Positions 34,016 through 64,000 of a stretch of 64,000 nt of DNA are shown piece by piece. Each line of letters starts with the position of its first letter. The first letter of the stretch is position 1. The stretch spans positions 96,001 through 160,000 of the forward strand of contig JAWXAQ010000030.1 of NCBI GenBank assembly GCA_034439575.1. The letters run 5' to 3'. This stretch comes from Leptospira sp. Lineage in GTDB: Bacteria > Spirochaetota > Leptospiria > Leptospirales > Leptospiraceae. The notes below the pieces were generated by a model. The model saw nothing but the letters and a program-made list of their open reading frames with translations, was not told where the DNA came from and did not search any database. Position numbers and translations under genes: made by a program.

Positions 34016-34045
34016 TTTTAGCTCTGTAATTATCGAAAATTAGAT

Positions 34046-37303: not shown

Positions 37304-37322
37304 TCCCCCTAAACAGGGGGTA
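37304..37322. promoter_or_regulatory. GC-rich palindrome, candidate NarL/LuxR-type operator
   Basis: TCCCCCT-AAAC-AGGGGGTA in AT-rich DNA upstream of the cyclase-regulator-kinase operon. Confidence 0.4.
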
Positions 37323-47130: not shown

Positions 47131-47321
47131 GATGTGTTATATGGATGAAACTTTATCGAAAGAACCGATCCCGCTCTCCCTAAGACGAGGGCACTCTGTC
47201 GAGCAATAGCAAACCTCGTTCCCATCTCCCTTCCCTCTCACCTCCGTGTTCGAAGGAAGGACTCCGACATCCATGTCTCCGTTACCGATGGAAACAAGGT
47301 TTGCTGGCCGAAGAAAGATCG
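47131..47321. repeat. Composite repeat, copy 1 (block A 47131-47181, hairpin block B 47209-47321)
   Basis: A is 49/51 identical to 51106-51156; B core 47215-47305 is 90/91 identical to 50962-51052. Confidence 0.95.
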
Positions 47322-47654
47322 TGTAACGATATCAATGATGGGCTCTCACATTCTGCAAAAGTATTATAAATTACGCTCTCATCCCGTTCTTTGTGGGTTC
47401 ATAACCTACTTACATCTTTTGAAACAGCCGCCTAAATAAAGATAACATTCGTTTTTCTGTGAAGTCTCTCTGCTTCTGGCGAAGGATTAGTTATGTACGA
47501 AAATCATTTCTTTTTGAAAATTAGTTCTATTCTATTTGTAAAATCGTGAACTAACTAACAATTTGTAGACTAGCAACGAACAATAAGTTTACTGTGTTGT
47601 GAAAATTTCTGTCTTAACGTACATAGCTTCTACGATTGTAGTGTTTGCGAGATT

Positions 47655-48218
47655 TCATGTTAAATTATTTAAAATCCCGATCGTAAAATTTATAATTTCA
47701 TTCCATTCTGTATCTGAAAAATTTGGAGTGTATATTAAGTTTATAGTAACTCGAAATGTTTTTTTATACTTTTTGTGGTAATAAAATGCAATCACCTTTC
47801 CCCCGATTACTTCACTTGGTCCATATAAAATTTCCATTTTTTCTGTTTTATAACGGATAAATTTTTTCCATCGATTGACGGATGTTGGTTCAAATTTAAA
47901 GTCTTTTAATTTTGATTCGGTGACAATTTCTTCAAATCTCTTTAATGAATTAGGGATTATAGATACATCAATTAACAAAGAAAAACATTCATTCTCTTGC
48001 AGGCAATCTGCTTTAAAATAAGTTATCGGATATTTTAATTCCTGTTGAACAGAATCAATTCTTTCTGTTACTTTTGGAACATAAAGTCTCATAGATTCAA
48101 CTTTTTCTTCTCTTACAGGATAAAAAGCGATGCCTCGATAACTTTTCGTTAAATCTAATTTCTGAGCATTTAGAAGAGTAAATGAAAGCAGACACAACAA
48201 AAGAACTAGTCTTATCAT
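47655..48218 (-). CDS. Secreted hypothetical protein (candidate orphan immunity protein)
   Basis: Signal peptide MIRLVLLLCLLSFTLLNA; co-oriented, 38 nt downstream of the lipoprotein gene. Confidence 0.7.
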   Translation of the reverse strand: MIRLVLLLCLLSFTLLNAQKLDLTKSYRGIAFYPVREEKVESMRLYVPKVTERIDSVQQELKYPITYFKADCLQENECFSLLIDVSIIPNSLKRFEEIVTESKLKDFKFEPTSVNRWKKFIRYKTEKMEILYGPSEVIGGKVIAFYYHKKYKKTFRVTINLIYTPNFSDTEWNEIINFTIGILNNLT

Positions 48219-48256
48219 TTCGTCACCTAATGATAGTTTGCATCTAATTTGAGCTA

Positions 48257-49024
48257 CTACGGCTTTTCATAACTCGTTGGATCATAAATATCTGCATCAA
48301 TTTTCCGTTTGTATTTTGTTTCATAAGCAGATACAAATTTTTCCATCTGACCCTCTGAAACTTTTTTCCATCCTTGAAACATAACCATCTTTAAAGAAGG
48401 CAGGTTCAACATACAATCTAGGCTTTTTTTAGTTAGGTTGGTCATATCATCCATGCGAAGGAAAGTAAGGTTTTTTGCATTTTCTGTGAATTTGCACATG
48501 CCTTCATCTGTGATTTTTGCACCAGGCCCAAGAATAAATCGATCTAATTTTAATACGTGCGAAAAACATTCAACATCATTGTCTAATAGAGGGACGTGGC
48601 TGTAATCTATTTTTACCTTAGGTGCTTTTAGTCCTTTTGCAATCTCACATATCTGTTTGTGGTTTAGTTCGCTTCCTCTTATAAAAAGTGTCGTTAAATT
48701 AGAATTCTTGCATGCGCTCATTTCCTGGTCACTGAAATCTGGCAAGGCACCCCAAGATATATCTAAGAAATTTAATTTCTTTATCGAACATATGGTTACA
48801 AGGTCTTCCGGTAAGTAAATTCCCTTTCCAGTCATTTCAATTGCAGGGATTTTTTCTTTCGTTGAAGCATCGAAAGTCTCCATATAATATCGATAGGACC
48901 GAGAAGTGAGATTTTTGATCAAATCTTCATCCGACAGGCTTGCAATCCGTGAAGTCGCCGTCGAACAAGCATGAAGGACGAAAGACATTAGAACGAAAGA
49001 TAATTTCTTCAAAGAGTATTTCAT
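48257..49024 (-). CDS. LRR-like lipoprotein (candidate immunity protein for the 49027 module)
   Basis: Lipobox 'VLHAC'; Cys-containing LRR-like units ('KITDEGMCKF...KNLTFLRM', 'LPSLKMVMF'); starts 2 nt after the upstream stop. Confidence 0.7.
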   Translation of the reverse strand: MKYSLKKLSFVLMSFVLHACSTATSRIASLSDEDLIKNLTSRSYRYYMETFDASTKEKIPAIEMTGKGIYLPEDLVTICSIKKLNFLDISWGALPDFSDQEMSACKNSNLTTLFIRGSELNHKQICEIAKGLKAPKVKIDYSHVPLLDNDVECFSHVLKLDRFILGPGAKITDEGMCKFTENAKNLTFLRMDDMTNLTKKSLDCMLNLPSLKMVMFQGWKKVSEGQMEKFVSAYETKYKRKIDADIYDPTSYEKP

Positions 49025-49026
49025 TC

Positions 49027-51021
49027 TTATTTCCTTGCTATATAATCAAAATTATAGGGCGCATATGTTGCATATTTGTTTAAATCGTTCTTAGGATTCC
49101 CCAATACTGACCCACTCACATTCTCTGGATCAAATTCCGTTCCATTCACAGTTGTCGATTGTGACCCATCTACCACTGTGTAAGTATAACGTCCATCCTT
49201 CATCGGATTCCTTTGTAAACTGATTGTATGACCAGTTCCACTACCATCATCTTTCACTCGCAATGTGATCGCTAATGGTTGTTCTTTCTTTAGAAAATCA
49301 GCAATGACTTGATATCCTTCTGCGCGTGCCGAAGCAACTGAAGCAGGATTGGATCTGTCGCCTTGTGGAAGTGGCGGATGAGATTTGTCATCATTCCATC
49401 GCTGGAAAGAACCATTGCCATTCATATAGGAATTGATTACCGCGCTTGTGCCACCTTGAGGTCCATTCAATTCCATGTTCTCAGGTTTCATAAAACCATT
49501 GTCAGTAATGTCCTTGATGAACTGTGGAAAATCTGGAATGGCATCACCTAAATTTCGTTTTAACATTCCCCAGTTAGCTGCTGCTACACACCACCTCTCA
49601 CGTAAGTAATCTGGCATACTTTTAGAATCTATGCCAGCCTTTACTGCTTCGGCAGTGGCATATGAAAGAGTTTCTGGCTTTCCCCATTGTTGGAGGGAAC
49701 CTTTTGCCTGGTTCGCATAATAATTTGAGTCTTGATGAAAAACTTCCCCAATTCTAAAATTCCCAGTGGCTTCATTTACATAAACATTCAATGCTAATGG
49801 TTTCGTAGTTGCAGGGAGAACTTCGATCACTCCATTCTTTGCATTGAAGAGCTTCTTCATTGCGTCAGAGATTACACCAGGTTCTTTTTTGAGTCCACCA
49901 GATTGGATCAGATCTTCTCTTGTATTACCTACTGTTTTTATAACATCGTCCATGGATTTACCATATTTCTTTTCAAAGGATGCTTGGGCTGCTTTCATTG
50001 CATCCGATTTTTTTGTCAAATCCGCCTGCATTTCTTTAGATATAGGCATATTATTGGATACAGACTCTATGCTTTTTGAAAGAGCATTCTTAAAATCAGC
50101 TTCTGCTTTTACATATTTATGAACTGCGGATTTTACAGAAGGATCCATTTCTTGGCTTAACATCGGATTATTTAGAATGTCTATTGCCACTTCCATTCTT
50201 TGCGTTTTCGATAATGATAAATCTTGTGCTTTTTTAAATATTAAGCGCTCCGATTCTGCCTTTTTAATAGCATCCATTTCCGTTTTCGTAATTTTAATCA
50301 TTTCATTCTGAGTTATTGTTAATTCATTATTATACTTTATCAAAGTGTTACTTAGATATTGAATTAATTGGGTTTCATTTTTTGGAACGAATCCTGGATC
50401 TTTTTGATGTAAATGGTTATATTCACCAACACCTAAAACCACTCTTTCAATCTGACCTCGAACTGCCTCGATATCCAGTTTCGCTTGTGAGGCTTTATCA
50501 TTCAATTCAATGTATTTCGGATCTAATTTTAACTCAGCAATTTTATTCTTAGCCTGAGTAATTCTCTCGTTTATATTTTGTTCTTGTTCGCTAATGATGC
50601 TTGTCCTGTCTGCATGCATGTTTTCAAAAGCCATCAAAGATTTTGTCACCGTATCTTGCATTGATCCCATATAAGCCCTTGCTGTATCAGTGGAACTAAC
50701 GACTGTCCGTTTTGGTAAATCGGGAACATTGATAATTACCTGTCCGCCATTATCAACTTTTACGTATACTCCTTTCTTATCTGAAAGCGAAAGAATTTTT
50801 GATTCCTCAATCAACTTTAATCTCTCGGAATCTGGCATTGCATTGATTAAATCAATACCTTCATTAGGTGTATTCGAAAATTTTGGTTCGATCAGTATGC
50901 ATTTAGGAATCTGGCCTTCCGTATAACGTGAATTATGTTTATTACCCAGCCCAGGCAAACGCTCGTTCCCATCTCCCTTCCCTCTCACCTCCGTGTTCGA
51001 AGGAAGGACTCCGACATCCAT
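49027..51021 (-). CDS. Orphan C-terminal toxin-like module with putative papain-like Cys-His-Asp domain; 5' end derived from a repeat
   Basis: No signal peptide; the first ~21 codons lie inside repeat B; coiled-coil body; 'RWCVAAANW', 'GHTISL', 'VVDGS'. Confidence 0.65.
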   Translation of the reverse strand: MDVGVLPSNTEVRGKGDGNERLPGLGNKHNSRYTEGQIPKCILIEPKFSNTPNEGIDLINAMPDSERLKLIEESKILSLSDKKGVYVKVDNGGQVIINVPDLPKRTVVSSTDTARAYMGSMQDTVTKSLMAFENMHADRTSIISEQEQNINERITQAKNKIAELKLDPKYIELNDKASQAKLDIEAVRGQIERVVLGVGEYNHLHQKDPGFVPKNETQLIQYLSNTLIKYNNELTITQNEMIKITKTEMDAIKKAESERLIFKKAQDLSLSKTQRMEVAIDILNNPMLSQEMDPSVKSAVHKYVKAEADFKNALSKSIESVSNNMPISKEMQADLTKKSDAMKAAQASFEKKYGKSMDDVIKTVGNTREDLIQSGGLKKEPGVISDAMKKLFNAKNGVIEVLPATTKPLALNVYVNEATGNFRIGEVFHQDSNYYANQAKGSLQQWGKPETLSYATAEAVKAGIDSKSMPDYLRERWCVAAANWGMLKRNLGDAIPDFPQFIKDITDNGFMKPENMELNGPQGGTSAVINSYMNGNGSFQRWNDDKSHPPLPQGDRSNPASVASARAEGYQVIADFLKKEQPLAITLRVKDDGSGTGHTISLQRNPMKDGRYTYTVVDGSQSTTVNGTEFDPENVSGSVLGNPKNDLNKYATYAPYNFDYIARK

Positions 51022-51156
51022 GTCTCCGTTACTGATGGAAACAAGGTTTGCTCAGCCGAAGAAAGATCGAAAATAAACATCTCTTTCTTTCCGTTGGGCA
51101 CCTCGGATGTGTTATACGGATGAAACTTTATCGAAAGACCCGATCCCGCTCTCCCT
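50955..51156. repeat. Composite repeat, copy 2 (block B 50955-51069, block A 51106-51156)
   Basis: Direct-orientation copies of the 47.1-47.3 kb blocks, but in swapped order. Confidence 0.95.
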
Positions 51157-51191
51157 CGACGGTAACGCTCGGTCGATCGGTGGTGCAAGAC

Positions 51192-51833
51192 TCATTTATT
51201 TTTTTCTTCCTTTTCTGGACCAACAATATCATAGGAAGAATTATTTTTTTGTATTTCGGCTATTTCTGCTACCGTCGTCACACATTCTTCATAAGTTGTA
51301 TAGTCAATCCCTGCTCTTCCATCGTCTAGAACTGTATCTGAATTTAAGGCATAAAACTCAAATTCGCGAAAGACAGGAGTTGGATCTTTGTAATTACCAC
51401 TGTAAATCATTTTGAATCGTAATATTTTGGTCTCGCTTTCATTGGTTAAATAAAAAAAGTCTCCTTTCTTTGACAAAAATTTCAAATGAATATCGAATTT
51501 GCGTCCAGTGGAACGAAAGCGAAACAAATTCTTATCGGGTATAAATTCACCACAAGATGTAGCATAAATAGGCCGATATTCCCAAGCATTGGAAGCTTTT
51601 TTTCGAAGATCATCCTCAATATATTTCAAAAATGTATCATCTGGGTCTAAAATAACGACTCCTACCAACTCAGGATAGTCCATCAAAGTAAACTTTGGAT
51701 CAGTATATACCTTTATATCTACTATCGAGTTAGAAACTGATTCTGTCTTAACTTTTTCGTCAACTTTTTTGCACGCAAAAGGCGGAAGACTCAAAAATAA
51801 TATTAGAATATAATAATTTAGCTTATTTGTCAT
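51192..51833 (-). CDS. Lipoprotein, candidate cognate immunity protein of the giant protein
   Basis: ATG at 51833 overlaps the giant ORF stop by 11 nt; MTNKLNYYILILFLSLPPFAC lipoprotein signal. Confidence 0.75.
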   Translation of the reverse strand: MTNKLNYYILILFLSLPPFACKKVDEKVKTESVSNSIVDIKVYTDPKFTLMDYPELVGVVILDPDDTFLKYIEDDLRKKASNAWEYRPIYATSCGEFIPDKNLFRFRSTGRKFDIHLKFLSKKGDFFYLTNESETKILRFKMIYSGNYKDPTPVFREFEFYALNSDTVLDDGRAGIDYTTYEECVTTVAEIAEIQKNNSSYDIVGPEKEEKNK

Positions 51834-54800
51834 AATAAATCCCATAGACTGGGTGATCCTTGAAATTAACTGGCAGAAAATCACCGCTTTCTCTTTCTCC
51901 ATTATTGTTCATATCATACCACTTTCCATCTGTTCCTTTGATGATCAAATTGTAATGATTGCCACCTGGACGATCTTTCCTATCTGTATCTCGATAAACT
52001 TGAACAACTTCACCAGGTTTTCGATCTGCTAAAATGTTGTTTACTTCGACTGTTGTAAATGGTCTTGATACACCAACAATCCCATTGTCAGTAAAATCAA
52101 AATTTGGGGAATTATTTCCCGTTTTCGTTCCAGTAAGATCGAGCCTACTTTCAACTCGGGTTGTATAACCGGCAAGATTATTTTGATCCATAACTGGTTT
52201 AGGTGGACTAGAACTATCTGCTCCGATATCTCCTATCCTAAACTTTGTGATCAGATATTCAGAAAAACTAGCAGACGTTTTGTTGTTTGCCACTGCAAGA
52301 GTATAATTAGCATAAACTTTACATAATTCCGCTGTTGTATTCTTTGCAATCGCGTCAGTCGATGCTGCCTTGTCGCCGAATATATAATTCTTGATAAATT
52401 CGAAGTTTTTACTCCCCGATGGATCTCCTGCAAAAGTAAAATTATCTTTTCCTTGATCCCTGATCGTGGCAAATACAAGTTCCACCATTTTTGACATCCC
52501 ACCATTCTTACTCTGATTGACAATTGTTGGGTCAAGTAACTTATTCATAGCGTTGATTCTGTCTTGTCCTTCCAGAGAAGCAAAACTCCGTCCTTCCAAC
52601 TCTGGCATATTTGCTCGAAGAAACTCGTCTGGTGTTTGATTTGCTCGTTCAATTCCATCAAGTTGAGCCTTTGTCAGACCCTCCACCGTTCTCATATTTT
52701 CTGCTGTATCAGAAAGTGTTTTTTGATACGGTTCCGCGACCTCTGGAATTCTGTCGAATTGGGCCTGTAAATTAGACGAAGAAACCGATATGGGCTCACC
52801 CAATTTGACAGAGTTCAATTTTTCTAATGGTCCATTAAAAGTCTGCGTGGTCGGATCAAAAAATTTCTGATGCAAGAAAGCATTCATCTCGGTTTTCAAT
52901 TTTCCAAAGGAAGTAACCTGAGCAGAAAGTTCATCATTTCGTGTGCGTACTTCTTTAATAATTTGTTTTTCAAGCTGCTGACTTTCAAGATTCGCTTTTT
53001 TATAGTCAACCGATTGATTCTGTAAATCCTTGATCTGTCTCACTAGAGTCATTTCCTCAGGACTTGAACCTTTAATTTGTGAAAGAATCTTCACGAAATC
53101 AGAGTCTTTACTCTTAACATCCAATCTTAAAACTTGTTCTAACAATTTTGGCTTACCATTTAAAAAACCAGATATATTGTTCTCAGACGAATTGCGATTT
53201 AATAACAATTCACTGCTATTTTGCCCACCAAGTTCAAATTTAAGTGTATCAAATGCGTTCTTTGTATCAGTAAGTTTTTGAATCAGCTTTCCTTGCTTGA
53301 CCTCGCTTGGCAATGGCTTAGATAATCTCTCAATGGCGCTCTCTACATTTGATATTTTGTCTCCAAAGTTTGTTTCAAATTCTACCCTATATGCTAATGG
53401 CATAGACTCAGAAATTTTTGAAAATGTATCATGAATTTTTTCTGATGGAGTTTTATTAGGAGTCCCCAATTCCGACGAGCCAAAATACTGAATACCAAGT
53501 GTTGATCTGATGAAACCCCCACCCGAATTGTCTGTCACATAAACCACATTAGGCTCTCCTCCGAGACCAGATGTCTGCCTTACATTATCAAAAATAGCCA
53601 TATCGCTTGCGTTAGGTGTGCGTATACTTGTTTCACCTGTGATTTCATTTAAAACGACTGTTTGCAATCGACCATTTTCATCTTGTCGAATTGCTTTCAA
53701 TGAACCATCTGCTTCACGACCATAAATTATACCTGAATCAGGATCTACCCAGTATCCATCTCGATCGATACCTTCATACATTTTTCGTCTTCGTGTTTCA
53801 ATCGCATCAACAGCTACGTTATTATTTGTTGTATTGTTAGGCGCCGCATTCCCAGCCCCTCTTCCTAGTCCAACGAACGCTAACAAGGCGGCACTTGTCG
53901 TGCCTAAGATTCCCATAGTTGCATCAGCAATCCCATCAGCACTGATCATGCCATCTATATGGTTAAGTGCCAAGCTTCTATCATATTCTGACATTCTATT
54001 GATTTGGTCAGATGTATACTGTCCGCTTTCCACTATTCGATTAGTATCTATGATACGAATGGCATTCTCTCTTGCTATGGGATCCATTCCACGAATTTGG
54101 TCTTCCGTATAATATGATCTAAGTTTAATATCTGCAGCTCTCGCTCTCTCGGCATCCCCCGTCATATCTTGCGCCAAATTGATATTTTGCTCAGCCCAAT
54201 TCATCTCATCATACTGGAAGCCATCTTCTGTCATTGTCGCTAAATTTACACCATGTAACTGTAGTGAGTTCGACAATCCGTTAGTGTCAATGGTAGCATT
54301 ATAGCCAAGTCCCGTAGCACTATCTGTATAGCCTACTGTTCCGGATACTTGCCCTCTATTTGTATCATAGTTCGCTCCAAAATTCCAACCTCGTCTTGGT
54401 CCTTCATTACTTGGATTATAGTTTACCCCTACTGTAGTTGAACCGTTAGTCGTTGAAGAGCCTGTTACTTGAACTCCTTCTATTGACGTATTATAAGACG
54501 CGTTAATGGTTGTATTTCCCCTCTGAGAAAAGGATATACTCGCATTAGTCATATCACCACCGATTCCGATCATACCGCCCCAACCAGCTCGCCTATCGTA
54601 GGTAACTCCAAGACCAAGTGTCGTACCGGATAATATACCGGTTCCGCTGCTGAATGTAAAGTTCCCATTAGCAGTCATCGCTCCTAAAAATCCGTTTGCA
54701 AAGCCTGCAAGCATGCCTTGCGTTCCATTCCGACTACCATCTATCGTCTGTACGGCTCCGTTTAGAATCGCGGCCGTTAATCTAGCACTGCCAGATACAG

Positions 54801-57800
54801 CGTTCATTGTTCCTTGCAATGCAGGGCCAAATGCACCTGCCGCTCCTAATGTTACAGCTGTTGTAACGGTAGTGATCGCAGTTGACCGAACAGCTTCTGC
54901 TCTTGCTTTTTTATCAGCACGACTTTGTTCATAACGACTTACGGTATTCCTTAGAGATGCATTTAATATTTCTTTTTCATCGTCTGTCATACCGACTGAC
55001 AGTGCCTCAACGGCCATCCTTTGACCAAGTTCCTTAGTAAAACCTTTCTTGTCTTTAATGGATGGTGTAGAACTCGTATAACTAGTACCAGGTGCTTTCA
55101 TACCAGATGCTTGATTCATAAAAGCATTTCCTTGTGCCTCGAGTGTACTATCACGAGTAGTTGAGAAAAGAACGCGTGTGGAATCACTAATCATCTCTTG
55201 AATGTCCCTTTCAGGCACTCCAACTGCGACCATTGCTGTTTTCACAATACCTCCTCCTATTCCCATGACTTGAGACATTATATTCATAACCGGATTAGCA
55301 TTGATCGCTTGGCGTGTTTTTTTGGCTTTTTTTGCTCCATAATAATCAGCGATTGCATTTCCTACGACTTCGAGCGGAAGGCCGGTAGATGTTGCTACTG
55401 CTTGTGTTCCAATGGACTGTATGATTGATTGTTCATTCGCCTTAATCGCTGCTAGTTTGTCTTTAGATCGTGTACTGGCATTAATAGTTGCCTCGTATTT
55501 CTTCTCTCCGACCGCTGATTTGTACATTACTGAAGCCATAATACCTCCAGAAGAAAACATTTGTGTAAAGGCGATAGCTGGCGTTAGGATAGCACTGCCA
55601 ATATCCGCCTTCTTAATCTTCCTTTCTTGCACCTTACCTTTCATAAAACTTAGAGCTTGTGCAAGCTGTCCTATCTGGCTTTCATCGGCACCTGTAGCTC
55701 GTGCAAACGCTGTGGCGATATCCATATTGATCTTATCTTCTATCTTGCCTTTGATTGCACCCTTAACTCCCGCCATACCACCGCTAATGTAGGCAATAAT
55801 GAGATCCTTCACAAGTGAATCGTGATTTTCTTGTTCTGTTTTGGCCTTTTGGAATTTCCTTTCGTTAGCGGATTCTACAGAACGAATATCGGCCACAAGA
55901 CTTCCGACGATAGAATTGTCTTTGGCCAATTGTTTAGTATAAAAATTGTTCATCACGGCATTTGCTTGGGCACTAAAATCTTTCCAATCTGCTTGTTCCC
56001 ACACATCGAATAAATCTTTGCCAGTAGGCATAGTAACGGGCGCGACATTGGAAAGTGCTATCGTTCTAGTTTCCGATTGTCGACCACTTAAATATTTTCC
56101 AGAGGCATCTCTACCTTCAATGCGCCCATTGCTAATAACTTTAGTAAGTGTCGCAACTTTGGTTGCTGTATTAAATTTTACTTCGAAATCTTCTCGTAAT
56201 AATCTCCCCCCACCCTCGACACTTACACAATTATGTGGGTTCGCATAACAAGATCCAACTCTTTCTTTTTGTTCCTTGGTGAGTAATTTCTTATCTGCTT
56301 CGGAAAGAATATCTAATTTAATTCTATCTTCTAGATCACCATAGGATCTAACAATCATCCCATCCTGGTATTCATATCCGTCTTTTTTTAACTCATTCAG
56401 AGTCCAGCCATGAACTAAACCAAAGCAGTTAGCATCTTTGCCATGTTCTACTTTACAGGCTGCCATTTGTTTTTCATATCCCTTGGTATCTGTCAGAAGT
56501 TTCAAAGCATGATTCACTTTGGCATCACCCACAAAGTTCCCATTCTCATCAAATCGTCCCACCGCCCGATCTTCCCAGCGGATTCCAAAAGCTTGTCGAT
56601 TTAGCATTGTCCTCTGTTCGGCGATCGCATTCTCTTCGTTTTTAGAATTTACGGATAACAATTGTGAATATTGATAAACACCATTTACGGTTGTTTGCAA
56701 AATTTGAGTTATATCTTTATTACCTATATTGAGGGAAGTATTTACTGTGATTTGCGATTCTGCATTGAAAAGATTCACACCATTCACTGTTTCTGAAATC
56801 AGAGATGTTAGATTTGCAGAAAAAGATGAGGTCACACTCGCTATATCCGTATTAGTTGGAGTAGAATCCTGATATGCTGATTTTAATTTAATCTGTGCTA
56901 TATTTTGGAATTGGTTTGCATCTCTGGTACTGCGAACAGAGACAGATTGTCTCTCTAGGTTATCCCATTCGCTCTGTCCTTGGATAAACTCATCTTGGAT
57001 TTTTGATAGCCATCGCTGTTTTCTCTCATCCAATGCGGCAAGAGCCGTTTCCCTTTCCTGTGTCGCCTGCGTGCGTGTTAAATCAGCTTTAACCTTCCAT
57101 GCTGTATAAAAGTCATTATAATCTTTTACTTGTGATTCCCAAGCTGTCGCCGCTGGGATAAGGTTCATTTCATAATTATTTATCTGATTATTTAGAGAAT
57201 TTTTGATTCCATTCCAATAAGTGGTATGAGCATCTTTATTGGCATCATATACTTCGTAAGCTAGGGCAAAGGTCACATGATCCATTTGGAATGCTGTTGC
57301 AGTAGGACCTCGCAACAAAAAATAGGTCCGATAATCGAATCCATTTTGCCTATCCATATTCATATTACCTTGCTTAACCGCATTGTTATCACATGGCAAT
57401 GGGACTATACATTCCGATCCACCTTTGGCGATACCAGTCCAACCTAAATTATCTCCCACCGCATGTTTATTCGCAAAGGCAGTATCTCGGGTATAAATAT
57501 TATAATATACATTTGTTCCTGTGCGAATCGACTGATCGGAACTTAAATAACGCTGTAATAAAGCTTGTATACCTGCTTGGTTGCCAGTATGCATATAGTG
57601 AAGTAGTTCGATATGATCTCCTACTCCTAATGAATAATTAAAAGGATTATTGTTAAAATCCGCAGCTAGACCCCATGCAAATTCACTAGATATATTTTTC
57701 CAATGTTCATATCCTGCATGATTGATAGTCCCTATCATATTTAAAAGTGAGGAAGGAGCAATGCTTGTCCTATCATTAAATTTATTATAAACTTGATATA

Positions 57801-58797
57801 TTTGAGATTGATAACTCGTATAATTTGAATTTGCTGTCAATCGCTGACTCGTTAAATAAGTATTCAAATTTGTAGCAAGGGTACTTATTGAAAACGATGG
57901 TGAGATCGTAGTTGAATCCACTTCTGTTCTAATTGCATTCACCAATGCTTGTAAGGTGGCCCCTGCTGTATTGATCACACCATTATTATCACGATAGGCA
58001 CATCCGTCTGCCACCGAACATGCTGCGTTCAATTCTACTTGGAAGCCATCAATCATATCTTTAATCGCTCTTTTAACTTCCTTTTTATACTTGTCTATTT
58101 CCGTTAATTGGCTTTGGAAGTTAGTATCCGATCCATCAAGAGAGTTAATCACCTCCGCATAATTTCTTTCAATTTGATCTGCGGCTTGCGTAAAATCATA
58201 ATTCCCCTGAACATAGCGATCGCTATACACAGACTCCCATTCCGATCTCGCTTCCAACATTTGATTTTGCAAGGCAGCTTGATTAACAGTTTCATTAGTC
58301 ACATTTCCTAACAGAGAACTTTGCACGATTAGGCGATCAAAATATACTTCATTCACGCGACCAGTATTCAGCCTTGCTATAAACTCACTTTTGTTTTGTA
58401 ATAAATCTAAATTTGCATTCTGTTCCCAAACATTCAAAGCATCTTCTTTTTGTGAAAATAATGATCTCTCCACGTAATCTTTGTATGCCGCCACATCGTT
58501 AATTGCATCGCTACTAGTAATAGAATCTACATAGTCATAGATTGCATCGTCTACCGATGCTTCCCAGGCTCCTCGAATCAATCCTTGATAGTAAGTTATC
58601 TGCTCAGACCAGGTGGTTAAGGAATTCAAAAAATAACTGTGTCCATAAACTTCGCTCATTAGGTTGGGATCATATTGGCTTATATTCAAATTTAGAACTG
58701 TTGCTTGTGAAAAAATAGATTGGATAAAGAAAAAGACAATGATTACAATCGAAACGATAAAATTTTTTCTGCCAACAAACGATAATTTATCTTTCAA
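51823..58797 (-). CDS. Giant (2324 aa) TIGR04388-like Leptospira protein, putative polymorphic toxin
   Basis: Signal peptide with GAGG RBS; N-terminus ('...DAINDVAAYKDYVERSLFSQKEDALNVWEQ...') resembles the TIGR04388 family from memory; coiled coils, Gly/Ala hydrophobic helices, beta-rich segment, C-terminal 'ELCKVYANY...NHYNLI...WYDMN'. Confidence 0.75.
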   Translation of the reverse strand: MKDKLSFVGRKNFIVSIVIIVFFFIQSIFSQATVLNLNISQYDPNLMSEVYGHSYFLNSLTTWSEQITYYQGLIRGAWEASVDDAIYDYVDSITSSDAINDVAAYKDYVERSLFSQKEDALNVWEQNANLDLLQNKSEFIARLNTGRVNEVYFDRLIVQSSLLGNVTNETVNQAALQNQMLEARSEWESVYSDRYVQGNYDFTQAADQIERNYAEVINSLDGSDTNFQSQLTEIDKYKKEVKRAIKDMIDGFQVELNAACSVADGCAYRDNNGVINTAGATLQALVNAIRTEVDSTTISPSFSISTLATNLNTYLTSQRLTANSNYTSYQSQIYQVYNKFNDRTSIAPSSLLNMIGTINHAGYEHWKNISSEFAWGLAADFNNNPFNYSLGVGDHIELLHYMHTGNQAGIQALLQRYLSSDQSIRTGTNVYYNIYTRDTAFANKHAVGDNLGWTGIAKGGSECIVPLPCDNNAVKQGNMNMDRQNGFDYRTYFLLRGPTATAFQMDHVTFALAYEVYDANKDAHTTYWNGIKNSLNNQINNYEMNLIPAATAWESQVKDYNDFYTAWKVKADLTRTQATQERETALAALDERKQRWLSKIQDEFIQGQSEWDNLERQSVSVRSTRDANQFQNIAQIKLKSAYQDSTPTNTDIASVTSSFSANLTSLISETVNGVNLFNAESQITVNTSLNIGNKDITQILQTTVNGVYQYSQLLSVNSKNEENAIAEQRTMLNRQAFGIRWEDRAVGRFDENGNFVGDAKVNHALKLLTDTKGYEKQMAACKVEHGKDANCFGLVHGWTLNELKKDGYEYQDGMIVRSYGDLEDRIKLDILSEADKKLLTKEQKERVGSCYANPHNCVSVEGGGRLLREDFEVKFNTATKVATLTKVISNGRIEGRDASGKYLSGRQSETRTIALSNVAPVTMPTGKDLFDVWEQADWKDFSAQANAVMNNFYTKQLAKDNSIVGSLVADIRSVESANERKFQKAKTEQENHDSLVKDLIIAYISGGMAGVKGAIKGKIEDKINMDIATAFARATGADESQIGQLAQALSFMKGKVQERKIKKADIGSAILTPAIAFTQMFSSGGIMASVMYKSAVGEKKYEATINASTRSKDKLAAIKANEQSIIQSIGTQAVATSTGLPLEVVGNAIADYYGAKKAKKTRQAINANPVMNIMSQVMGIGGGIVKTAMVAVGVPERDIQEMISDSTRVLFSTTRDSTLEAQGNAFMNQASGMKAPGTSYTSSTPSIKDKKGFTKELGQRMAVEALSVGMTDDEKEILNASLRNTVSRYEQSRADKKARAEAVRSTAITTVTTAVTLGAAGAFGPALQGTMNAVSGSARLTAAILNGAVQTIDGSRNGTQGMLAGFANGFLGAMTANGNFTFSSGTGILSGTTLGLGVTYDRRAGWGGMIGIGGDMTNASISFSQRGNTTINASYNTSIEGVQVTGSSTTNGSTTVGVNYNPSNEGPRRGWNFGANYDTNRGQVSGTVGYTDSATGLGYNATIDTNGLSNSLQLHGVNLATMTEDGFQYDEMNWAEQNINLAQDMTGDAERARAADIKLRSYYTEDQIRGMDPIARENAIRIIDTNRIVESGQYTSDQINRMSEYDRSLALNHIDGMISADGIADATMGILGTTSAALLAFVGLGRGAGNAAPNNTTNNNVAVDAIETRRRKMYEGIDRDGYWVDPDSGIIYGREADGSLKAIRQDENGRLQTVVLNEITGETSIRTPNASDMAIFDNVRQTSGLGGEPNVVYVTDNSGGGFIRSTLGIQYFGSSELGTPNKTPSEKIHDTFSKISESMPLAYRVEFETNFGDKISNVESAIERLSKPLPSEVKQGKLIQKLTDTKNAFDTLKFELGGQNSSELLLNRNSSENNISGFLNGKPKLLEQVLRLDVKSKDSDFVKILSQIKGSSPEEMTLVRQIKDLQNQSVDYKKANLESQQLEKQIIKEVRTRNDELSAQVTSFGKLKTEMNAFLHQKFFDPTTQTFNGPLEKLNSVKLGEPISVSSSNLQAQFDRIPEVAEPYQKTLSDTAENMRTVEGLTKAQLDGIERANQTPDEFLRANMPELEGRSFASLEGQDRINAMNKLLDPTIVNQSKNGGMSKMVELVFATIRDQGKDNFTFAGDPSGSKNFEFIKNYIFGDKAASTDAIAKNTTAELCKVYANYTLAVANNKTSASFSEYLITKFRIGDIGADSSSPPKPVMDQNNLAGYTTRVESRLDLTGTKTGNNSPNFDFTDNGIVGVSRPFTTVEVNNILADRKPGEVVQVYRDTDRKDRPGGNHYNLIIKGTDGKWYDMNNNGERESGDFLPVNFKDHPVYGIYYDK

Positions 58798-58946
58798 TAT
58801 ACGTTACCTCTCTTTCCAATGAAACAAAAAATATCTTTATATATTCATTATATATAATTTACTTATTAACATTTCTTGGATTGAAAGGTGATAAAATTTG
58901 GATTTTGGGCCTGAACTTTTCTTTTTTTAGAAAATTTTCTTTATTT

Positions 58947-61865
58947 TTAAAAAAAGGTTCTAATTTTAAAAAAATAAACTTCAAAATAACTATGTATTTT
59001 TATATTAAATTTTGCCTCCCAATCTCTAATGATAAAGACAGTGAAAATATATAGAATAAATTGCATGCTGATCATTAAAATTAGGTAAAAAAAACTAATA
59101 ACCGCTTGAGGTAACATTAGGATGAATAATAACAATAGACATTCGAAAATGAAAGTCATTCTATTTATATGTGCAAGCGGACGTTCACCGAACCATAACA
59201 ATATTGGTTGGGATAATAGAATTCCAATCTGAAAAGATATATTTAAGCTAGTAGAAAAGAAAAATTGTAAAAGAAAAAAGGAAATAATATATGGAATAAA
59301 AAAATGAAATACCCAATGAATAGGTTCAATACTATTTTTATATATTAAAAATATTGTAAAAAACAAAAGCGAAGGATAAATCAAAAAAAATATTTTCTTT
59401 GAATAAAATTCGTTAGTTGATGCATTATCCGCCGATTCGATTCGATAACCTTCAGGTATTGAAATTTTTTTTACATAACCAATTAATTCATCTTTATCCG
59501 ATTGTCGATTTCCTTCTAATTTTACAGTAAAACTCAAATTACGCTGTCTATTTTTATGGTAATACTTTAATGGAATATTTTTTTCCTGAACTTTAACAAT
59601 TTCAGATATCGGTATAAATTCTCCTTTTTTATTTTTAATTCGTATAGATTTGAAATCACTTTTTGTATTTCTAAATTTTTCCATAAAACGTACTCGAATA
59701 TCTATTTCTTTTTCTGAACTAATGTATTTAGATATTACCCCACCTTGCAAAGCCAGACGGAGCTCATCACCAAATGTTTGTATATTTAAATCTGACGCAT
59801 GCAAGGCTTCGAAACTTGGAAAAAGTTGTAATTCTGTTCTAGCTTGTTTGTATCTCAAAACGACTTCATTCACATTCTCTAAATATTTTAATTTTTCTGA
59901 AATATTTTGGGTTAAGGATTCTAATTCTTTTTGATCATATCCAATCACATCAAAAGTTACTTCGGAAAAACTATTCGAATTTTCTTCGATTGCAAAAAAA
60001 AGAAAACCATCTGCAGTAGATCCAATTTTTTGCTTCAAACCAATTATTAATTCTGAATCAGGCAAATATCCGTCACTTAATGTTATTATTAAAAGTGCAT
60101 GCCCCGGTTCAATTTTTGAAATAACTTGTGCGACTTCTTCAAATTCCTTTAACTTTTTTTCAACTTGCAATGATACTTCATCCGTATGGGAATAAGATGT
60201 CCCAGAAGGAAATTCTAAAAAAGCCACCAATTCATTGTTATCTGAATTTAATGAATTCAAAAACTCGAGTTTAGTAATTGAAAATAATCCCAAAAGTATT
60301 AAAAATATTAAGCTCAAAGGAAATAACTTTTGATTTGAAAGTAATGGAACTGTGATTTTTTCTCTAAATTTAAATAGCCAAGCATTTAAAAATTTATATA
60401 TTTTTTTATTTAGGAATATTAACTTTTTCGATTTTTTAATATCTTTTATAAATTTAAAAATTAAAATGTAAGAACTTATAGCATAATAATCTAACAGAAT
60501 GAACGCACATATACCATATAATAAAAAACTAAAATAAAATCTAAACAATTCCCTGGAAATGAAGGCAGAAAATCCCAAAGAAAAAATTAAATAAATACAA
60601 AATTTTCCGATTTTACGGAAAGAATTAAATTGAATGGAGTTCGTATTAAATTTGAGATCTATAGAACGAAAATTATACCAAAACAAAGATCCTAATACAA
60701 TTCCGTAACAATTGGCTAGATTACATTTACCACCGAACAAATATGTGATGAATATGATTGCATAAAATGTAAAAGGAATTGAAATAAAAAACAAAATAAA
60801 GAAAATTTGATTTTGTTTATAATATAAAACAAAAATCATCAAAATAGATATAAGTATGATTACACTAAGACCAAAATATGTATTTGAAATTATTAACGAA
60901 TCATCTTGGTTATAATCGACATCAAGGCCGATATCATTTTGAACTGAGGTAATCTTTTTGATTTGATTCGCTATATAAAGTGGATCGCCAGATTCATTTT
61001 TATATAAAAATATTGAAACTTTTTCGGTAGCATTTAATCTTGCACCAACAAAATCATCTCTCGGAGAATACCCCACAGTAGCAATGTCTTTTAGATAAAC
61101 ATATTTTCCTTTTTGATCTACACTTAACGGAAGTTCATTCAATTCCAATATCTGATTTATTTTTTCACGAAGTGTTAATGAAATTAATTCTATGTTAGTA
61201 GATATTTTTCCTAATGATATGCTTGTATTCTTATCTTGAATTTTATTTACAATATCTCGCAAACTAAATTGGTAAGACTCAATCTGATGAGCATCACATG
61301 AAATCAATATTTCTCGAATTTTTCCACCCGCCACTATCACCAGGCTTAGTCCATCTATTGATTCATAAGCTCTCTTAAGTTTTTTCTCTACAATTTCTCT
61401 CAATTCATCTTGAGTTAAGTTCTCTTTTGAAAATGAAATGACCATCAAAGGGGAATTAGTCGGATCATGTCGAAATACTTGAGGCTTATGTACTTCTTTC
61501 GAAAAATTAGAATTAATTAAATCAAGTTTTTCTCGAAATTCCAAAGATTTCAATTTTAAATCAACATTTTCATCCATCTGAATTTGCAAAAGGGAACTAC
61601 CATCTTCAGAAACGGATGTTATTTTATGAACTCCTCCTACTTGTGATATAACTCTTTCTATAGGAGATGTGATATCACTTTCAATTTTTGAAGCATCAAA
61701 GCCATTTGCTTCCGTACGAATGGCAATACCCGGATAAACCTTTTTATCTTCTCGTTTAAAAGTAATTTTCTGGAATGATAAAATACCCAACAGAACCAAA
61801 AATAATCCAAACATTAGCATTAAAGTTGGATTTATTTTTTGAATCTTAAGAAATAAATTAACCAT
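58947..61865 (-). CDS. AcrB/CusA-family RND permease, highly divergent in its TM regions
   Basis: 'IESDITSPIER', 'SVSEDGSSL', 'GGKIREI', 'LKDIATV', 'FPSGTS', 'IPISEIV'; very AT-rich, with eroded TM segments. Confidence 0.8.
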   Translation of the reverse strand: MVNLFLKIQKINPTLMLMFGLFLVLLGILSFQKITFKREDKKVYPGIAIRTEANGFDASKIESDITSPIERVISQVGGVHKITSVSEDGSSLLQIQMDENVDLKLKSLEFREKLDLINSNFSKEVHKPQVFRHDPTNSPLMVISFSKENLTQDELREIVEKKLKRAYESIDGLSLVIVAGGKIREILISCDAHQIESYQFSLRDIVNKIQDKNTSISLGKISTNIELISLTLREKINQILELNELPLSVDQKGKYVYLKDIATVGYSPRDDFVGARLNATEKVSIFLYKNESGDPLYIANQIKKITSVQNDIGLDVDYNQDDSLIISNTYFGLSVIILISILMIFVLYYKQNQIFFILFFISIPFTFYAIIFITYLFGGKCNLANCYGIVLGSLFWYNFRSIDLKFNTNSIQFNSFRKIGKFCIYLIFSLGFSAFISRELFRFYFSFLLYGICAFILLDYYAISSYILIFKFIKDIKKSKKLIFLNKKIYKFLNAWLFKFREKITVPLLSNQKLFPLSLIFLILLGLFSITKLEFLNSLNSDNNELVAFLEFPSGTSYSHTDEVSLQVEKKLKEFEEVAQVISKIEPGHALLIITLSDGYLPDSELIIGLKQKIGSTADGFLFFAIEENSNSFSEVTFDVIGYDQKELESLTQNISEKLKYLENVNEVVLRYKQARTELQLFPSFEALHASDLNIQTFGDELRLALQGGVISKYISSEKEIDIRVRFMEKFRNTKSDFKSIRIKNKKGEFIPISEIVKVQEKNIPLKYYHKNRQRNLSFTVKLEGNRQSDKDELIGYVKKISIPEGYRIESADNASTNEFYSKKIFFLIYPSLLFFTIFLIYKNSIEPIHWVFHFFIPYIISFFLLQFFFSTSLNISFQIGILLSQPILLWFGERPLAHINRMTFIFECLLLLFILMLPQAVISFFYLILMISMQFILYIFTVFIIRDWEAKFNIKIHSYFEVYFFKIRTFF

Positions 61866-64000
61866 TCAAATTGATATCTTTGAACGAGAATACAAGGGGG
61901 ATGACAAATAACGAAAGAACTGTTGATGTAATGAGCCCAGAAATTACGACAATACCTAGAGGAATTTGAAATTCAGATCCTTTGCTAATGGAAAATATAA
62001 TTGGAAACATACCTAAAATAGTTGTTGTGTTGTTCATAATCACTGGTCGGAAAATTGTAGATGCGGCGGCAAACATTGCTTTTTCGATATCTCCGATTTC
62101 TTTCAAATATAAATTAAAATATTCATAGTATAATGCTGCATTATCTACTACGACGCCCATTAACAAAATAAATCCCATAAATGAACTTATGTTCAAAGAT
62201 TTACCGGTAATAAATAAGGCCGGAAAAGTTCCAATAAATACTAAAGGAACAGTCGTTAACATTAAAAAAGAGGAAATATAAGATTGGCTAAGACCAGCTA
62301 ACAACATGAATATAAGTAATAATGCTAAAGAAAATGCAATGGCCATCTCATTTAAAGACTCAGTCAATTTTTCTTTTTCCGATGAGTCTTTTATTTTAAT
62401 ACCCTCGGGTAATTGAGTCTTATTTAATAAATCCAGAATTTGATTTTTAGAATCTGGGGTCTTTGGATCTATAAAAATTTGAATCGGATTGACTTGGGTG
62501 TTTCCATGCCTTATTATATTTGATCTAATATTTTTTTTCTGAAAAGAGACGAATTGTTCTAGGGGAACATTTTCGCCGAAGGGAGTTACGATGCGAAGAG
62601 ATTTGATTTTTTCAATTGTATCCGAAGAATTTTTCTTCATACCAATGCGAATCGGAAGAGAAATTCCTCCTTCTTTTATTTCTGATACTTTAATTCCTTT
62701 CAAAGCAATTTTTATAAAAGTTGATATATATACATTCGTTAATCCATATTTAGCTAACTTGTATGCATCATATTTAATTTGATATTCAGGTTTCTCCTCT
62801 TCATTTCCTAAAAATATCATTCTGACACCATTGATTTTATAAATTTTGTCCTTCAGATTCTTTGAAAATTCATTTAGAACATTTTCTTCTTCTCCAATGA
62901 TAAAATAGGAAATCTCGGCTGACTTTTCGGAAAGCAATTCTCCTAACATATTTTCTTTAGGTTCTATCAAATAAGTCACTAAATCAGTATTTTTCAATAT
63001 CTCTTTCAATTTGATGGAGAAATTAAAAGAAGAAATTCCTATTTCTTCTTTTAACGAAACTTTTACATTTAATTGGCTAAATTCTTCTGAAGAACTTTTA
63101 TGAATTAAAAAATCTTCTTCTGCTCCCACCATTGTAAGTATGGAATTTATATTCGACTTTATTTCTGGTAATGATTCAATATGTTCTGCATATTTATTTA
63201 ACAACTGTAAACTTGTCCCAGTTGGCAGTCTTATTTTGATATTAATTTCACCAGTATCTATACGCGGAATATATTCTTTTTCGATAAAAAAAAATAGAGT
63301 TAGGCTAGTGAGGAATAGAATCAATATAATCTTTAAAAATAATAATTTATACTCATAAATAAATTTTAATTTCTTTTGATAAATTCTCAGTAATTTCTCT
63401 TCATTGAATATATTAAAAAGTATATTTTTTCGAGCTTTATCATTTCGAAATTTATAAAAATAACTCGTAATAAGAGGAATGAAAGTTAATGAAACAATAA
63501 AACTCAAAGACAATGTGATCACGATTGATAATGCCATTTCACGAAAAATCATACCTAAAGAACTTTTAATAAATCCAATAGGTAAAAATACGATAACGGT
63601 TGTAGCCGTAGCCGCAAATACTGAAGAAAAAACTTCTTGCACTCCATTAGAAATGGATATAAATAAATCTTTTCCGAGCATTCGATGTCTTTCAATTGCA
63701 GATAAAACAACATTACTCGAATCAAATAACATTCCAATCCCTAAAGCTAGACCACCTAAGCTCATCATATTGAAGCCAATATCTATATAATCAAAGATCA
63801 AAAAACTTGGAAGAAGCGTTGCTGGAATAGCTAAAATAAGAACCATTGGACTTTGATAATTTTTTAATATTAATAATAAAGATAAGAAGGCTAAAAATGC
63901 ACCTAGAATAAGACTAAAAAATAATCCACGTAATGAATCAGAAATAAATTTAGCTTCGTCATTTATAATTTCACCATGAATTTCTTTGGAAAATAAATTG
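61858..64000 (-). CDS. AcrB/CusA-family RND permease, 5' end outside window
   Basis: Frame is open to the window end; 'FNMMSLGGLALGIGMLFDSS', 'TTVIVFLPI', 'GVVVDNA', 'RPVIMNNTTTILGMFP', 'GLITSTVLSLFVIP'; overlaps the next RND gene by 8 nt. Confidence 0.9.
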   Translation of the reverse strand, partial: NLFSKEIHGEIINDEAKFISDSLRGLFFSLILGAFLAFLSLLLILKNYQSPMVLILAIPATLLPSFLIFDYIDIGFNMMSLGGLALGIGMLFDSSNVVLSAIERHRMLGKDLFISISNGVQEVFSSVFAATATTVIVFLPIGFIKSSLGMIFREMALSIVITLSLSFIVSLTFIPLITSYFYKFRNDKARKNILFNIFNEEKLLRIYQKKLKFIYEYKLLFLKIILILFLTSLTLFFFIEKEYIPRIDTGEINIKIRLPTGTSLQLLNKYAEHIESLPEIKSNINSILTMVGAEEDFLIHKSSSEEFSQLNVKVSLKEEIGISSFNFSIKLKEILKNTDLVTYLIEPKENMLGELLSEKSAEISYFIIGEEENVLNEFSKNLKDKIYKINGVRMIFLGNEEEKPEYQIKYDAYKLAKYGLTNVYISTFIKIALKGIKVSEIKEGGISLPIRIGMKKNSSDTIEKIKSLRIVTPFGENVPLEQFVSFQKKNIRSNIIRHGNTQVNPIQIFIDPKTPDSKNQILDLLNKTQLPEGIKIKDSSEKEKLTESLNEMAIAFSLALLLIFMLLAGLSQSYISSFLMLTTVPLVFIGTFPALFITGKSLNISSFMGFILLMGVVVDNAALYYEYFNLYLKEIGDIEKAMFAAASTIFRPVIMNNTTTILGMFPIIFSISKGSEFQIPLGIVVISGLITSTVLSLFVIPLVFSFKDINLNG

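Follow-up and report, generated by a model that had tools for sequence, protein, structure and literature searches.

The minus strand of a 64,000-nucleotide stretch of Leptospira sp. contig JAWXAQ010000030.1 (the window, whose positions serve for all coordinates below unless another contig of the same genome is named by a C number) carries two genes for permeases of the resistance-nodulation-division (RND) type, a gene for a giant secreted protein of 2324 amino acids belonging to family TIGR04388, and behind it a series of smaller genes and repeats. Judged from its sequence, this array is very probably a polymorphic toxin-immunity locus of a free-living Leptospira of the saprophyte clade, with the giant as carrier of an exchangeable toxin domain. 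The original prediction described the array as a single co-oriented series, and every one of its open reading frames (ORFs) was found where that prediction had placed it. The polymorphic toxin layout it proposed was also borne out, by a constant N-terminal region, a sharp junction motif, toxin domains at the C-termini, downstream genes that vary along with them, and orphan modules.

The host genome measures 4.1 Mb with a GC content of 35.7%. An alignment scan with the membrane fusion protein (MFP) encoded next to the array found relatives in Leptospira idonii, L. ognonensis, and L. ilyithenensis. The sequencing runs that contain the window stretch are labelled microbial mat and groundwater metagenome, and there was no RNA run carrying it among the sequencing runs listed. 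For comparison, 54 loci were fetched around TIGR04388 matches in 40 other genomes of the genus (first 18, then 36). Fetched regions are referred to by L numbers, genomes by G numbers, and homologous proteins by P numbers.

A constant carrier with exchangeable ends

The giant is encoded at 51823..58797 (minus strand) and begins with an N-terminus resembling a signal peptide. Its proposed membership in TIGR04388 was verified with the profile, which it passes at 192.3 bits (cut-off 45; E 1.1e-56, residues 22-708); 14 unrelated genomes searched as a control gave no match. The constant region, residues 1-1544 (54166..58797), contains the TIGR04388 N-domain and, at residues 1301-1500, a stretch rich in Gly, Ala, Ser, Thr, and Asn, and it closes with the junction motif WAEQNINLAQD (54166-54198). 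In 45 of 56 giants, the motif, in the form [FW]AEQNIN.AQD, stands at the end of the constant region. Past it lies the variable C-terminal region, residues 1545-2324 (51826..54165), made up of a linker, a helical region, and a terminal domain of ~240 amino acids. A related-locus search with the giant's N-terminus found no relative.

TIGR04388 proteins are encoded in each of the 40 other genomes of the genus, in 1 to about 11 copies per genome, and in 80 of 114 genomes from other genera of Leptospiraceae, to which family the carrier is restricted among the genomes surveyed. The host genome itself has a second such gene, truncated at its 5' end, on contig C13. Its product is 40% identical to the window giant over residues 75-1550 and bears no similarity to it beyond, ending in a PT-HINT domain (3.4e-24) and a lipase-like domain (21.9 bits, just under the cut-off, with a GHSLGG motif evident by eye). 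An ankyrin-repeat gene lies directly 3' of it.

Across the genus, the C-termini past the junction motif fall into 13 clusters among 45 giants. When 18 C-termini other than that of the window giant were compared with Pfam, six showed M23 domains, two PT-HINT (one of them with Tox-REase-9), one Peptidase_C39_2 together with a lipase-like domain, and one a lipase-like domain alone, while eight had no match. The toxin domains recognized in relatives are of four kinds: M23 peptidase, class-3 lipase, PT-HINT with an REase nuclease, and papain-like peptidase. The giants at RND-linked loci with an operon of the window's type end in domains that are papain-like, lipase, M23, M23, and, in two cases, of no assigned kind. 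By eye, the ORFs 3' of the giants mostly resemble lipoproteins, and ankyrin proteins are encoded directly 3' of four lipase-type giants. At L038, L039, and L043, 5'-truncated fragments of giants stand behind the full-length gene, each with a small gene downstream, and at L094, the giant and its immunity gene are followed by two long orphans, each with its own lipoprotein. The orphan arrays at L038, L039, L043, and L094 retain pieces of the constant region.

A probable orphan toxin module and its partner genes

The ORF of 664 amino acids at 49027..51021 (minus strand) lacks a signal peptide; its N-terminal part is helical, and a peptidase-like domain lies at the C-terminus (about 49030-49734). 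The original prediction called it C-terminal-like, which proved true of its relation to other TIGR04388 giants and untrue of its relation to the giant directly upstream, with which (C-terminus included) BLAST found no similarity. BLAST likewise showed no similarity of this ORF or of the two lipoproteins of the array to the giant or to one another. The 664-amino-acid protein has 23 relatives among 1.84 billion representatives. Two of these, P0003 (2492 amino acids) and P0011 (1716 amino acids), pass the TIGR04388 profile and carry the related region at their C-termini, and the fetched giants at L042, L093, and L084 end in a similar way. The match to L042 (24% identity over ~600 amino acids, E 1e-37) begins at residue 35 of the ORF, whose ATG and first ~20 codons lie inside a copy of a hairpin repeat, D1, described below.

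Two nucleotides past the stop codon of this ORF begins a candidate orphan immunity gene (48257..49024, minus strand), encoding a lipoprotein of 255 amino acids. The invariant Cys that recurs in this protein every ~25 residues indicates a cysteine-containing leucine-rich repeat (LRR). Homologues are encoded directly behind the giants of L042 and L093 (in two copies at the latter) but none was found behind that of L084, hence behind two of the three giants of this type with visible flanks. The orphan pair of C-terminal module and immunity gene that had been proposed is thus supported by a homologous arrangement at L042 and L093. At L042, a lipase-like domain is followed by the 664-like module, then by the LRR-lipoprotein homologue, then by an ankyrin protein, so that the immunity genes stand in mirror order to the toxin domains.

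Residues 251-664 of the orphan were modeled by AlphaFold2 (AF2) with a predicted local distance difference test score (pLDDT) of 81. The best match of the model in the Protein Data Bank (PDB), found by Foldseek, is 8ssk, the toxin of the CdiA-like protein StbD (E 7.9e-4). Further Foldseek matches are to Josephin clippases, SpvD, AvrPphB, and a papain-like cysteine protease toxin/immunity pair, with a weak match (E 0.23) to 9jdd, an effector-immunity complex of a type VI secretion system (T6SS). VIA-align placed residues 172-414 of the model with C39 peptidases, staphopain, SpvD, and Josephin at Z scores of 8.2-8.7, which is a middling range. The matches extend over 133-164 residues, those to C39 peptidases and staphopain over 133-157. 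The motifs WCVA, GHTISL, and TVxD are conserved and consistent with a Cys/His/Asp triad, and the domain models as a papain-like cysteine peptidase. From its homology to the C-termini of giants, the LRR lipoprotein that occurs with it, and the papain-like model, the 664-amino-acid ORF is predicted to be a 5'-truncated orphan toxin accompanied by its immunity gene.

Prediction of a complex between the peptidase domain and the mature 255-amino-acid lipoprotein gave a median score of 0.59, as against 0.25 for the best control; at least 77% of contacts agreed between runs, and the pLDDT of the partners was at least 81. In calibration, 58 of 80 solved complexes and 2 of 110 mismatched pairs came up to the mark, but at 0.60 or under, where this score lies, only 7 of the 80 solved complexes pass and yet both of the mismatches do, and the support for pairing is correspondingly weak. 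The cassette holds one more gene, at 47655..48218 (minus strand), for a protein of 187 amino acids with a signal-peptide-like N-terminus. It had no homologue in the fetched loci, and its sole Pfam match fell below the cut-off.

The C-terminus of the giant and the overlapping lipoprotein

Word-based homologue searches with the C-terminus of the window giant recovered no long protein but the giant itself and no short protein. Relatives were present in the fetched loci: the giants of L086 (40% identity over 426 amino acids) and L070, and an orphan of 176 amino acids at L090. The linker contains a hydrophobic segment at residues 1626-1645. In the terminal domain of ~240 amino acids (51826-52545), an alignment with the relatives shows an invariant Cys, His, and Asn (C75, H197, and N215); the last 1400 residues of the giant contain no other Cys. 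The leads that the ESM Atlas offers for this end, YopQ, Gln_amidase, CIF, C58, and SpvD, all belong to papain-fold families. The giant probably ends, we predict, in a second toxin of papain-like fold, unrelated in sequence to that of the orphan.

As the original prediction had it, the gene of a lipoprotein overlaps the 3' end of the giant gene. The ORF, of 236 amino acids (51192..51902, minus strand), has a probable start at 51833, which makes the overlap with the giant's stop codon 11 nt, and a lipobox-like LSLPPFAC was recognized by eye. No Pfam or NCBIfam family matched this candidate immunity lipoprotein. A homologue (32% identity) is encoded directly behind the L086 giant, with its related C-terminus, and thus behind one of the three related ends.

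Criteria of the Zhang type for polymorphic toxins look for a conserved carrier with unrelated C-termini, recognizable toxins among these, an immunity gene downstream that varies with them, and orphan modules. The TIGR04388 giants show the first in their 13 clusters. Recognizable toxin domains are found in members of the family, the window giant offering only its Cys/His/Asn motif and weak Atlas leads. The downstream genes follow the type of end in two of three cases for the LRR lipoprotein, one of three for the 236-amino-acid lipoprotein, and at four lipase-type ends for the ankyrin proteins. Orphan modules occur in the window and at L038, L039, L043, L090, and L094.

Several observations weigh on the other side. 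Every Atlas lead for the giant's end scored 0.84-0.88, below the line of 0.9, and the papain-like assignment rests on these scores and on the three invariant residues. A single-sequence AF2 model of the end had a pLDDT of 46.5 and was discarded for fold searching, and PDB sequence searches with both C-termini and with a profile of the giant's end returned nothing significant. Comparison of the alignments of the giant's end and of the orphan domain by hhalign gave a probability of 0.16%, which is not significant; the regions of the two His boxes were aligned, which is no evidence. Pfam found no family in the giant at E <= 0.01, neither a toxin domain nor PT-HINT. The orphan and the giant upstream have no constant-region sequence in common, which makes simple homologous swapping impossible at the window locus. 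Finally, one conserved form of ~1960 amino acids, called here the core giant, shows that the family is not polymorphic throughout: in 22 of 28 core giants, the C-terminus has a mean identity of 56%, as compared with 60% for the N-terminal region, and the downstream gene is conserved as well. Core loci outside that cluster of 22 carry other C-termini, that of L070 being the one related to the end of the window giant. The expectation that C-termini would differ between orthologues held for the family at large, with its 13 clusters of ends, and failed within those 22 core loci. Likely, we infer, an ancestral giant borne on the RND operon and having a fixed function gave rise to paralogues that swap toxins.

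The RND operon

The first permease gene (61858..64000, minus strand) runs past the end of the window to a 5' end at C30:160932 and encodes 1024 amino acids in full (PF00873 ACR_tran, 8.7e-127). The second, at 58947..61865 (minus strand), encodes a divergent RND-like permease of 972 amino acids (RND2; PF00873 1.7e-79, the best stretch covering only 13-391). Both fall far below the cut-offs of the multidrug and metal subfamilies (NF033617, TIGR00915, and TIGR00914), at best 330.6 and 223.9 as against 1250 bits, and meet only the superfamily domain PF00873. Just past the window end, the operon is completed on the same strand by genes for the MFP, a protein of 228 amino acids, a tetratricopeptide repeat (TPR) protein, and a lipoprotein of 198 amino acids close to the LIC10494 family (64 as against 70 bits); last come those for a Big_5 protein and a TolC-like outer-membrane efflux protein (OEP). 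In base composition, the two permease genes (26-31% GC, with 26-30% for RND2) differ from the giant gene (38-44%), the genome mean being 35.7%.

RND2 homologues are encoded directly upstream of giants in other genomes. Among the first 18 loci, the operon adjoins a giant in seven (five co-oriented, two divergent); contig ends interrupt two of the 11 unlinked loci, and another belongs to a tandem cluster of giants behind an RND-linked giant. Among the next 36, 28 are linked, including all 26 of the core type, so that with L050 and L051 the count for core loci is 28 of 28. The order there is OEP, Big_5, MFP, RND1, RND2, giant, mostly with a conserved gene of ~215 amino acids next. In other genera, 13 of 16 loci have operon homologues and 8 have RND permeases. 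By our estimate, with about 12 RND loci in the host genome, one would be met by chance in ~7% of random 20-kb stretches.

The host genome is without a core giant. Its two operons of the window's type share 49-67% identity, and the second of them (OEP to RND2) runs to the end of contig C32 with a signal peptide like that of a giant, which the truncated giant of C13 fits; the ends of C32 and C13 are probably neighbors across a gap of about 45 codons. At L108, L110, L111, and L113, from another genus of Leptospiraceae, giants of 3100-3200 amino acids stand behind two genes for lipoprotein-like proteins of ~1000 amino acids and a divergent OEP-Big_5 pair, which together take the place of the RND pair in another local form of the association.

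That RND linkage would recur in other genomes, as originally predicted, is correct for all 28 core loci and extends to other genera, but the linkage is not obligate. With no other genes for secretion in view and an association that is old and widespread, the operon is the best candidate for the machinery that takes the giant across the outer membrane or assembles it there, a role suggested by synteny to which we would give somewhat less than an even chance.

To our knowledge, RND pumps do not move proteins, and this tells against the giant as a substrate. It may be, then, that the toxin system is real and the operon is not its exporter, the pump having a small-molecule or lipid substrate of its own and being linked to giants through co-regulation, envelope maintenance, self-protection of the producer, or descent from the ancestral core-giant operon. 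We rate this alternative as less likely than not, though worth serious consideration. Eight operon loci (L132-L135 and L137-L140) have no adjacent giant, one of them keeping only an ankyrin remnant of 103 amino acids, and at least nine informative giant loci, including L036, L039-L043, L049, and L053, have no operon in view. G066 and G080 have RND2-like matches near 1e-108 (29% identity) and no TIGR04388 match at 1e-10, although phyletic co-occurrence of RND2 and TIGR04388 is blurred by RND paralogues, which match as well. The MFP, moreover, is an ordinary RND adaptor (TIGR01730, 197 bits). A pump of independent function would, however, leave the immediate, co-oriented adjacency at every core locus to be accounted for, and its recurrence in other genera and across versions of the operon only 22-54% identical. 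The accompanying Big_5, TPR, and LIC10494-like proteins and the second, degenerate permease are odd company for an efflux pump, and giants encoded elsewhere in the genome, which are common, could be served by the apparatus in trans.

Repeats at the cassette junctions

The repeats that the original prediction listed in the array were recovered, as two matching pairs, when the sequence was compared with itself: 47215-47305 equals 50962-51052 at 99% over 91 nt, and 47122-47181 equals 51097-51156 at 92% over 60 nt. The repeats are real but not peculiar to the array. Both belong to dispersed families, which rules out their origin as private duplications of this locus.

The first pair belongs to D1, an imperfect palindrome of ~115 nt with the ends GCAAAC...GTTTGC, of which there are 29 copies in the genome, most of them between genes and several forming arrays. 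Copy A (47205-47320, minus strand), matched in sequence by copy B, folds into a hairpin with a 19-bp terminal stem (-22 kcal/mol, z -3.6). Copy B (50955..51075, minus strand) has terminal inverted repeats of ~18-19 nt and, as single-stranded DNA, a fold of -18.2 kcal/mol (z -2.1). The second pair is the 3' half of a larger structured element, E, present at 51080..51196 (minus strand), starting 3 nt past the stop codon of the 236-amino-acid lipoprotein, and as a degenerate or half copy at 47115-47205 (minus strand), adjoining D1 copy A. Along the minus strand, the order is therefore the 236-amino-acid lipoprotein, E, D1, the block of 664-, 255-, and 187-amino-acid proteins, D1, and half of E.

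Conservation of the invariant core of E, GATCGACCGAGCG....CGTCGAGGGAGAGC, is ~90% in other species, where the proteins encoded next to it are only 30-45% identical. A 3-bp helix closes the core, with 97% of cells paired. Over 13 copies, pair 18/60 is CG in eight, AU in three, GC in one, and unpaired in one, and pair 19/59 is GC in seven, CG in five, and UG in one. Covariation in the helix is 0.245, as against 0.094 ± 0.022 in shuffled alignments (none of 500 as high) and at most 0.079 in slid controls, figures that overstate the support, since the structure was derived from the same 13 copies, drawn from only four genomes. A covariance model of E, which scores the window copy at 100.6 bits, finds matches in 40 of 41 genomes of the genus, 2-37 copies in each and most where giants are many. 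Of the 22 E matches listed for one complete genome, 13 lie downstream of a giant or orphan at a distance of up to about 15 kb, so that E is enriched near these genes without being exclusive to them. In other genomes, E follows immunity genes, and orphan ORFs begin just behind E with a conserved leader. A search of Rfam with 46400-51400 gave only a sub-threshold snoRNA match and none to E, which may function either as RNA or as single-stranded DNA. At L132, one of the operon loci without a giant, a copy of E lies ~100 nt past the RND2 stop codon with no giant behind it, an arrangement that fits loss or relocation of a giant at E.

D1 and E mark the junctions of cassettes. The same repeats occur together at two other sites in the genome. 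At C35:32031-36936 (L055) and C33:271908-273640 (L056), they flank short orphan toxin fragments, one of 176 amino acids resembling the end of the L047 giant and one of 199 amino acids resembling the end of L041, each followed by a lipoprotein; the C35 site also has an Rpn-family transposase-like gene. A further array, of five D1 copies with small genes including one for a VapC toxin, begins 3 nt from the gene of a tyrosine recombinase at C11:40691-46585 (L054, 4692-10586), and looks integron-type. The recombinase passes NF040815 (231 as against 220 bits) and fails the integron-integrase model TIGR02249 (162 as against 265 bits).

The order in the window could have arisen when a circle carrying D1 was inserted at a D1 site, or by unequal recombination between dispersed repeats. 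A more specific proposal, which we think doubtful, is that the block of three genes is an integron-like mobile cassette, inserted by a tyrosine recombinase at D1 acting as an attC-type site, instead of being left over from displacement of a C-terminus; this would be compatible with the toxin-immunity reading. The nearly identical direct copies of D1 on either side of the block, in the order E-D1-block-D1-E', would then be expected, as would the hairpin that D1 forms, its many copies and arrays, the array beside the C11 recombinase with its VapC-type cassette, and the D1 sites of C35 and C33 with their orphan fragments and lipoproteins. But that recombinase falls short of the integrase cut-off, and attC sites have end boxes of the consensus RYYYAAC/GTTRRRY, from which those of D1 differ. 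The orientation of D1 relative to neighboring ORFs is mixed, one pair on C8 being inverted, and no excised or empty form was found in contigs from four metagenome runs, which are short and of low depth. One metagenome joint that skipped sequence was considered as an excision product and rejected, its letters being identical to those of the C35 repeat locus. Finally, a 2013 abstract names Treponema as the sole clade of spirochaetes with integrons (PMC3607928).

Both lines may be joined in a bolder conjecture: that the RND, MFP, and OEP components, with the Big_5, TPR, and lipoprotein extras and the degenerate permease, form a dedicated exporter of giants, and that the ends of the giants are shuffled at E and D1 by site-specific recombination. 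We consider it rather unlikely that both parts hold. If they did, a pump carrying Sec-exported giants to the surface would be a route of protein secretion not described before in spirochaetes.

A predicted mechanism

On the toxin-immunity reading, the giant would be exported by Sec and reach the cell surface or a neighboring cell, perhaps with the OEP/Big_5/TPR/MFP/RND1/RND2 operon taking it across the outer membrane or assembling it. There it would deliver its papain-like Cys-His domain into the periplasm of a competitor, where the target may be, at a guess, the cell wall or an envelope protein, while the lipoprotein encoded at 51192-51902 would shield the producer. The orphan pair may owe its retention chiefly to its immunity gene and to its use as a source of sequence for recombination, modules presumably being joined or exchanged at the junction repeats E and D1. 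It is very improbable that the giants instead act on the cell that makes them, as envelope proteins that use their M23, amidase-like, or lipase ends to remodel its wall or membrane under the control of lipoprotein regulators or inhibitors, for although the core form, with its conserved C-terminus and downstream gene, is conserved in each of the 40 other genomes of the genus and M23 peptidases are common housekeeping enzymes (several non-giant M23 genes were matched in the host genome), the PT-HINT pretoxin domains, the restriction-endonuclease-fold toxin Tox-REase-9, the 5'-truncated orphan arrays with downstream genes of their own, the multiple copies per genome, and the unrelated C-termini at the same locus are typical of antagonism, not of housekeeping.

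Relation to known systems

The closest parallel in layout is contact-dependent growth inhibition (CDI) by CdiA and CdiI. There too, a giant exoprotein has a constant region, a junction motif (VENN in CDI, WAEQNINLAQD here), and a variable toxin end, with the immunity gene directly downstream and 5'-truncated orphan pairs further on, and in fold the orphan domain comes closest to the toxin of a CdiA-like protein, StbD (8ssk), which the abstract of a preprint describes as an antibacterial cysteine peptidase. Unlike CdiA, the window giant showed no two-partner secretion domain or filamentous haemagglutinin repeats in the Pfam search, and its neighbors are RND, MFP, OEP, Big_5, and TPR proteins, with no CdiB partner detected. 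The carrier is TIGR04388, and the orphan of the window keeps no sequence of the constant region.

The Rhs and MafB toxins surveyed by Zhang et al. 2012 (PMC3482391) share with the TIGR04388 family PT-HINT, Tox-REase-9, Ntox10, lipase, and papain-like domains, ankyrin and LRR immunity proteins, and alternative C-terminal cassettes, and MafB shares Sec-type signal peptides. The giant differs in having neither RHS repeats nor a MafB N-domain (Pfam), and in its WAEQNINLAQD motif. The main text of that survey mentions neither Leptospira nor RND, so that the TIGR04388 carrier and its operon are not described there.

The enzyme classes found here (papain-fold hydrolase, M23, lipase) and the lipoprotein or secretion signals of the immunity proteins, which imply a periplasmic site of action, are also those of certain T6SS effectors. 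The Tae/Tai and Tle/Tli pairs of T6SSs are effectors acting on wall or membrane in the periplasm, with lipoprotein or secreted immunity proteins. The TIGR04388 system is unlike them in that there are no T6SS genes in the window or the fetched flanks and the toxins are fused to a Sec-exported carrier of 1500 residues. Chromosomal integrons of the Vibrio cholerae repeat (VCR) type in Vibrio have homogeneous attC sites. The D1 arrays resemble them in having imperfect palindromes (of ~115 nt) between small accessory cassettes, VapC toxins included, and a tyrosine recombinase beside one array; they depart from them in a recombinase below the IntI cut-off, atypical end boxes, mixed orientation, and a second element, E, alongside.

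In Leptospira itself, LA_3725 of L. interrogans, a large protein with one N-terminal transmembrane segment and PT-HINT, has been noted as toxin-like (PMC4751964), and PT8 is a polymorphic-toxin domain specific to Leptospiraceae and toxic in E. coli (bioRxiv 10.1101/2021.10.19.465003). The passages concerning them name no TIGR04388, junction motif, orphan arrays, junction repeats, or RND operon. A full-text literature search for the accession TIGR04388 found no paper, and searches combining Leptospira with interbacterial and immunity protein, or with RND, TolC, and giant protein, found nothing relevant. Thus no earlier description of the carrier family, its junction motif and elements, or its association with a pump came to light in the literature searches, although supplements might name carriers.

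Significance

We know of no described route by way of a type V secretion system of the CDI kind, a T6SS, or a type VII secretion system for interbacterial toxins in Leptospira. The window locus and about 90 related loci give the TIGR04388 proteins, the longest of these bacteria, a testable predicted role, that of carrying antibacterial enzymes that can be exchanged and that have lipoproteins as antidotes. They also define a site of exchange, at the WAEQNINLAQD motif, point to a rare papain-like toxin family with its putative LRR inhibitor, and bring out a structured repeat that marks cassette junctions throughout the genus. The conserved pump operon may be a new kind of protein exporter. We take the 80 of 114 Leptospiraceae genomes with the family to include pathogenic and intermediate Leptospira; if this is so, the system bears on competition in soil, water, and biofilms.

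Neighboring genes

The next gene past the array, at 44045-46474 (minus strand), encodes a protein of 809 amino acids with many leucine-rich repeats and a CAP (cysteine-rich secretory protein) domain; no link between it and the toxin locus was found. Further on, at 31476-37366 (minus strand), are the genes of two 7TMR-DISM membrane sensors, one of which (1106 amino acids) is fused to GAF and adenylate/guanylate cyclase domains.

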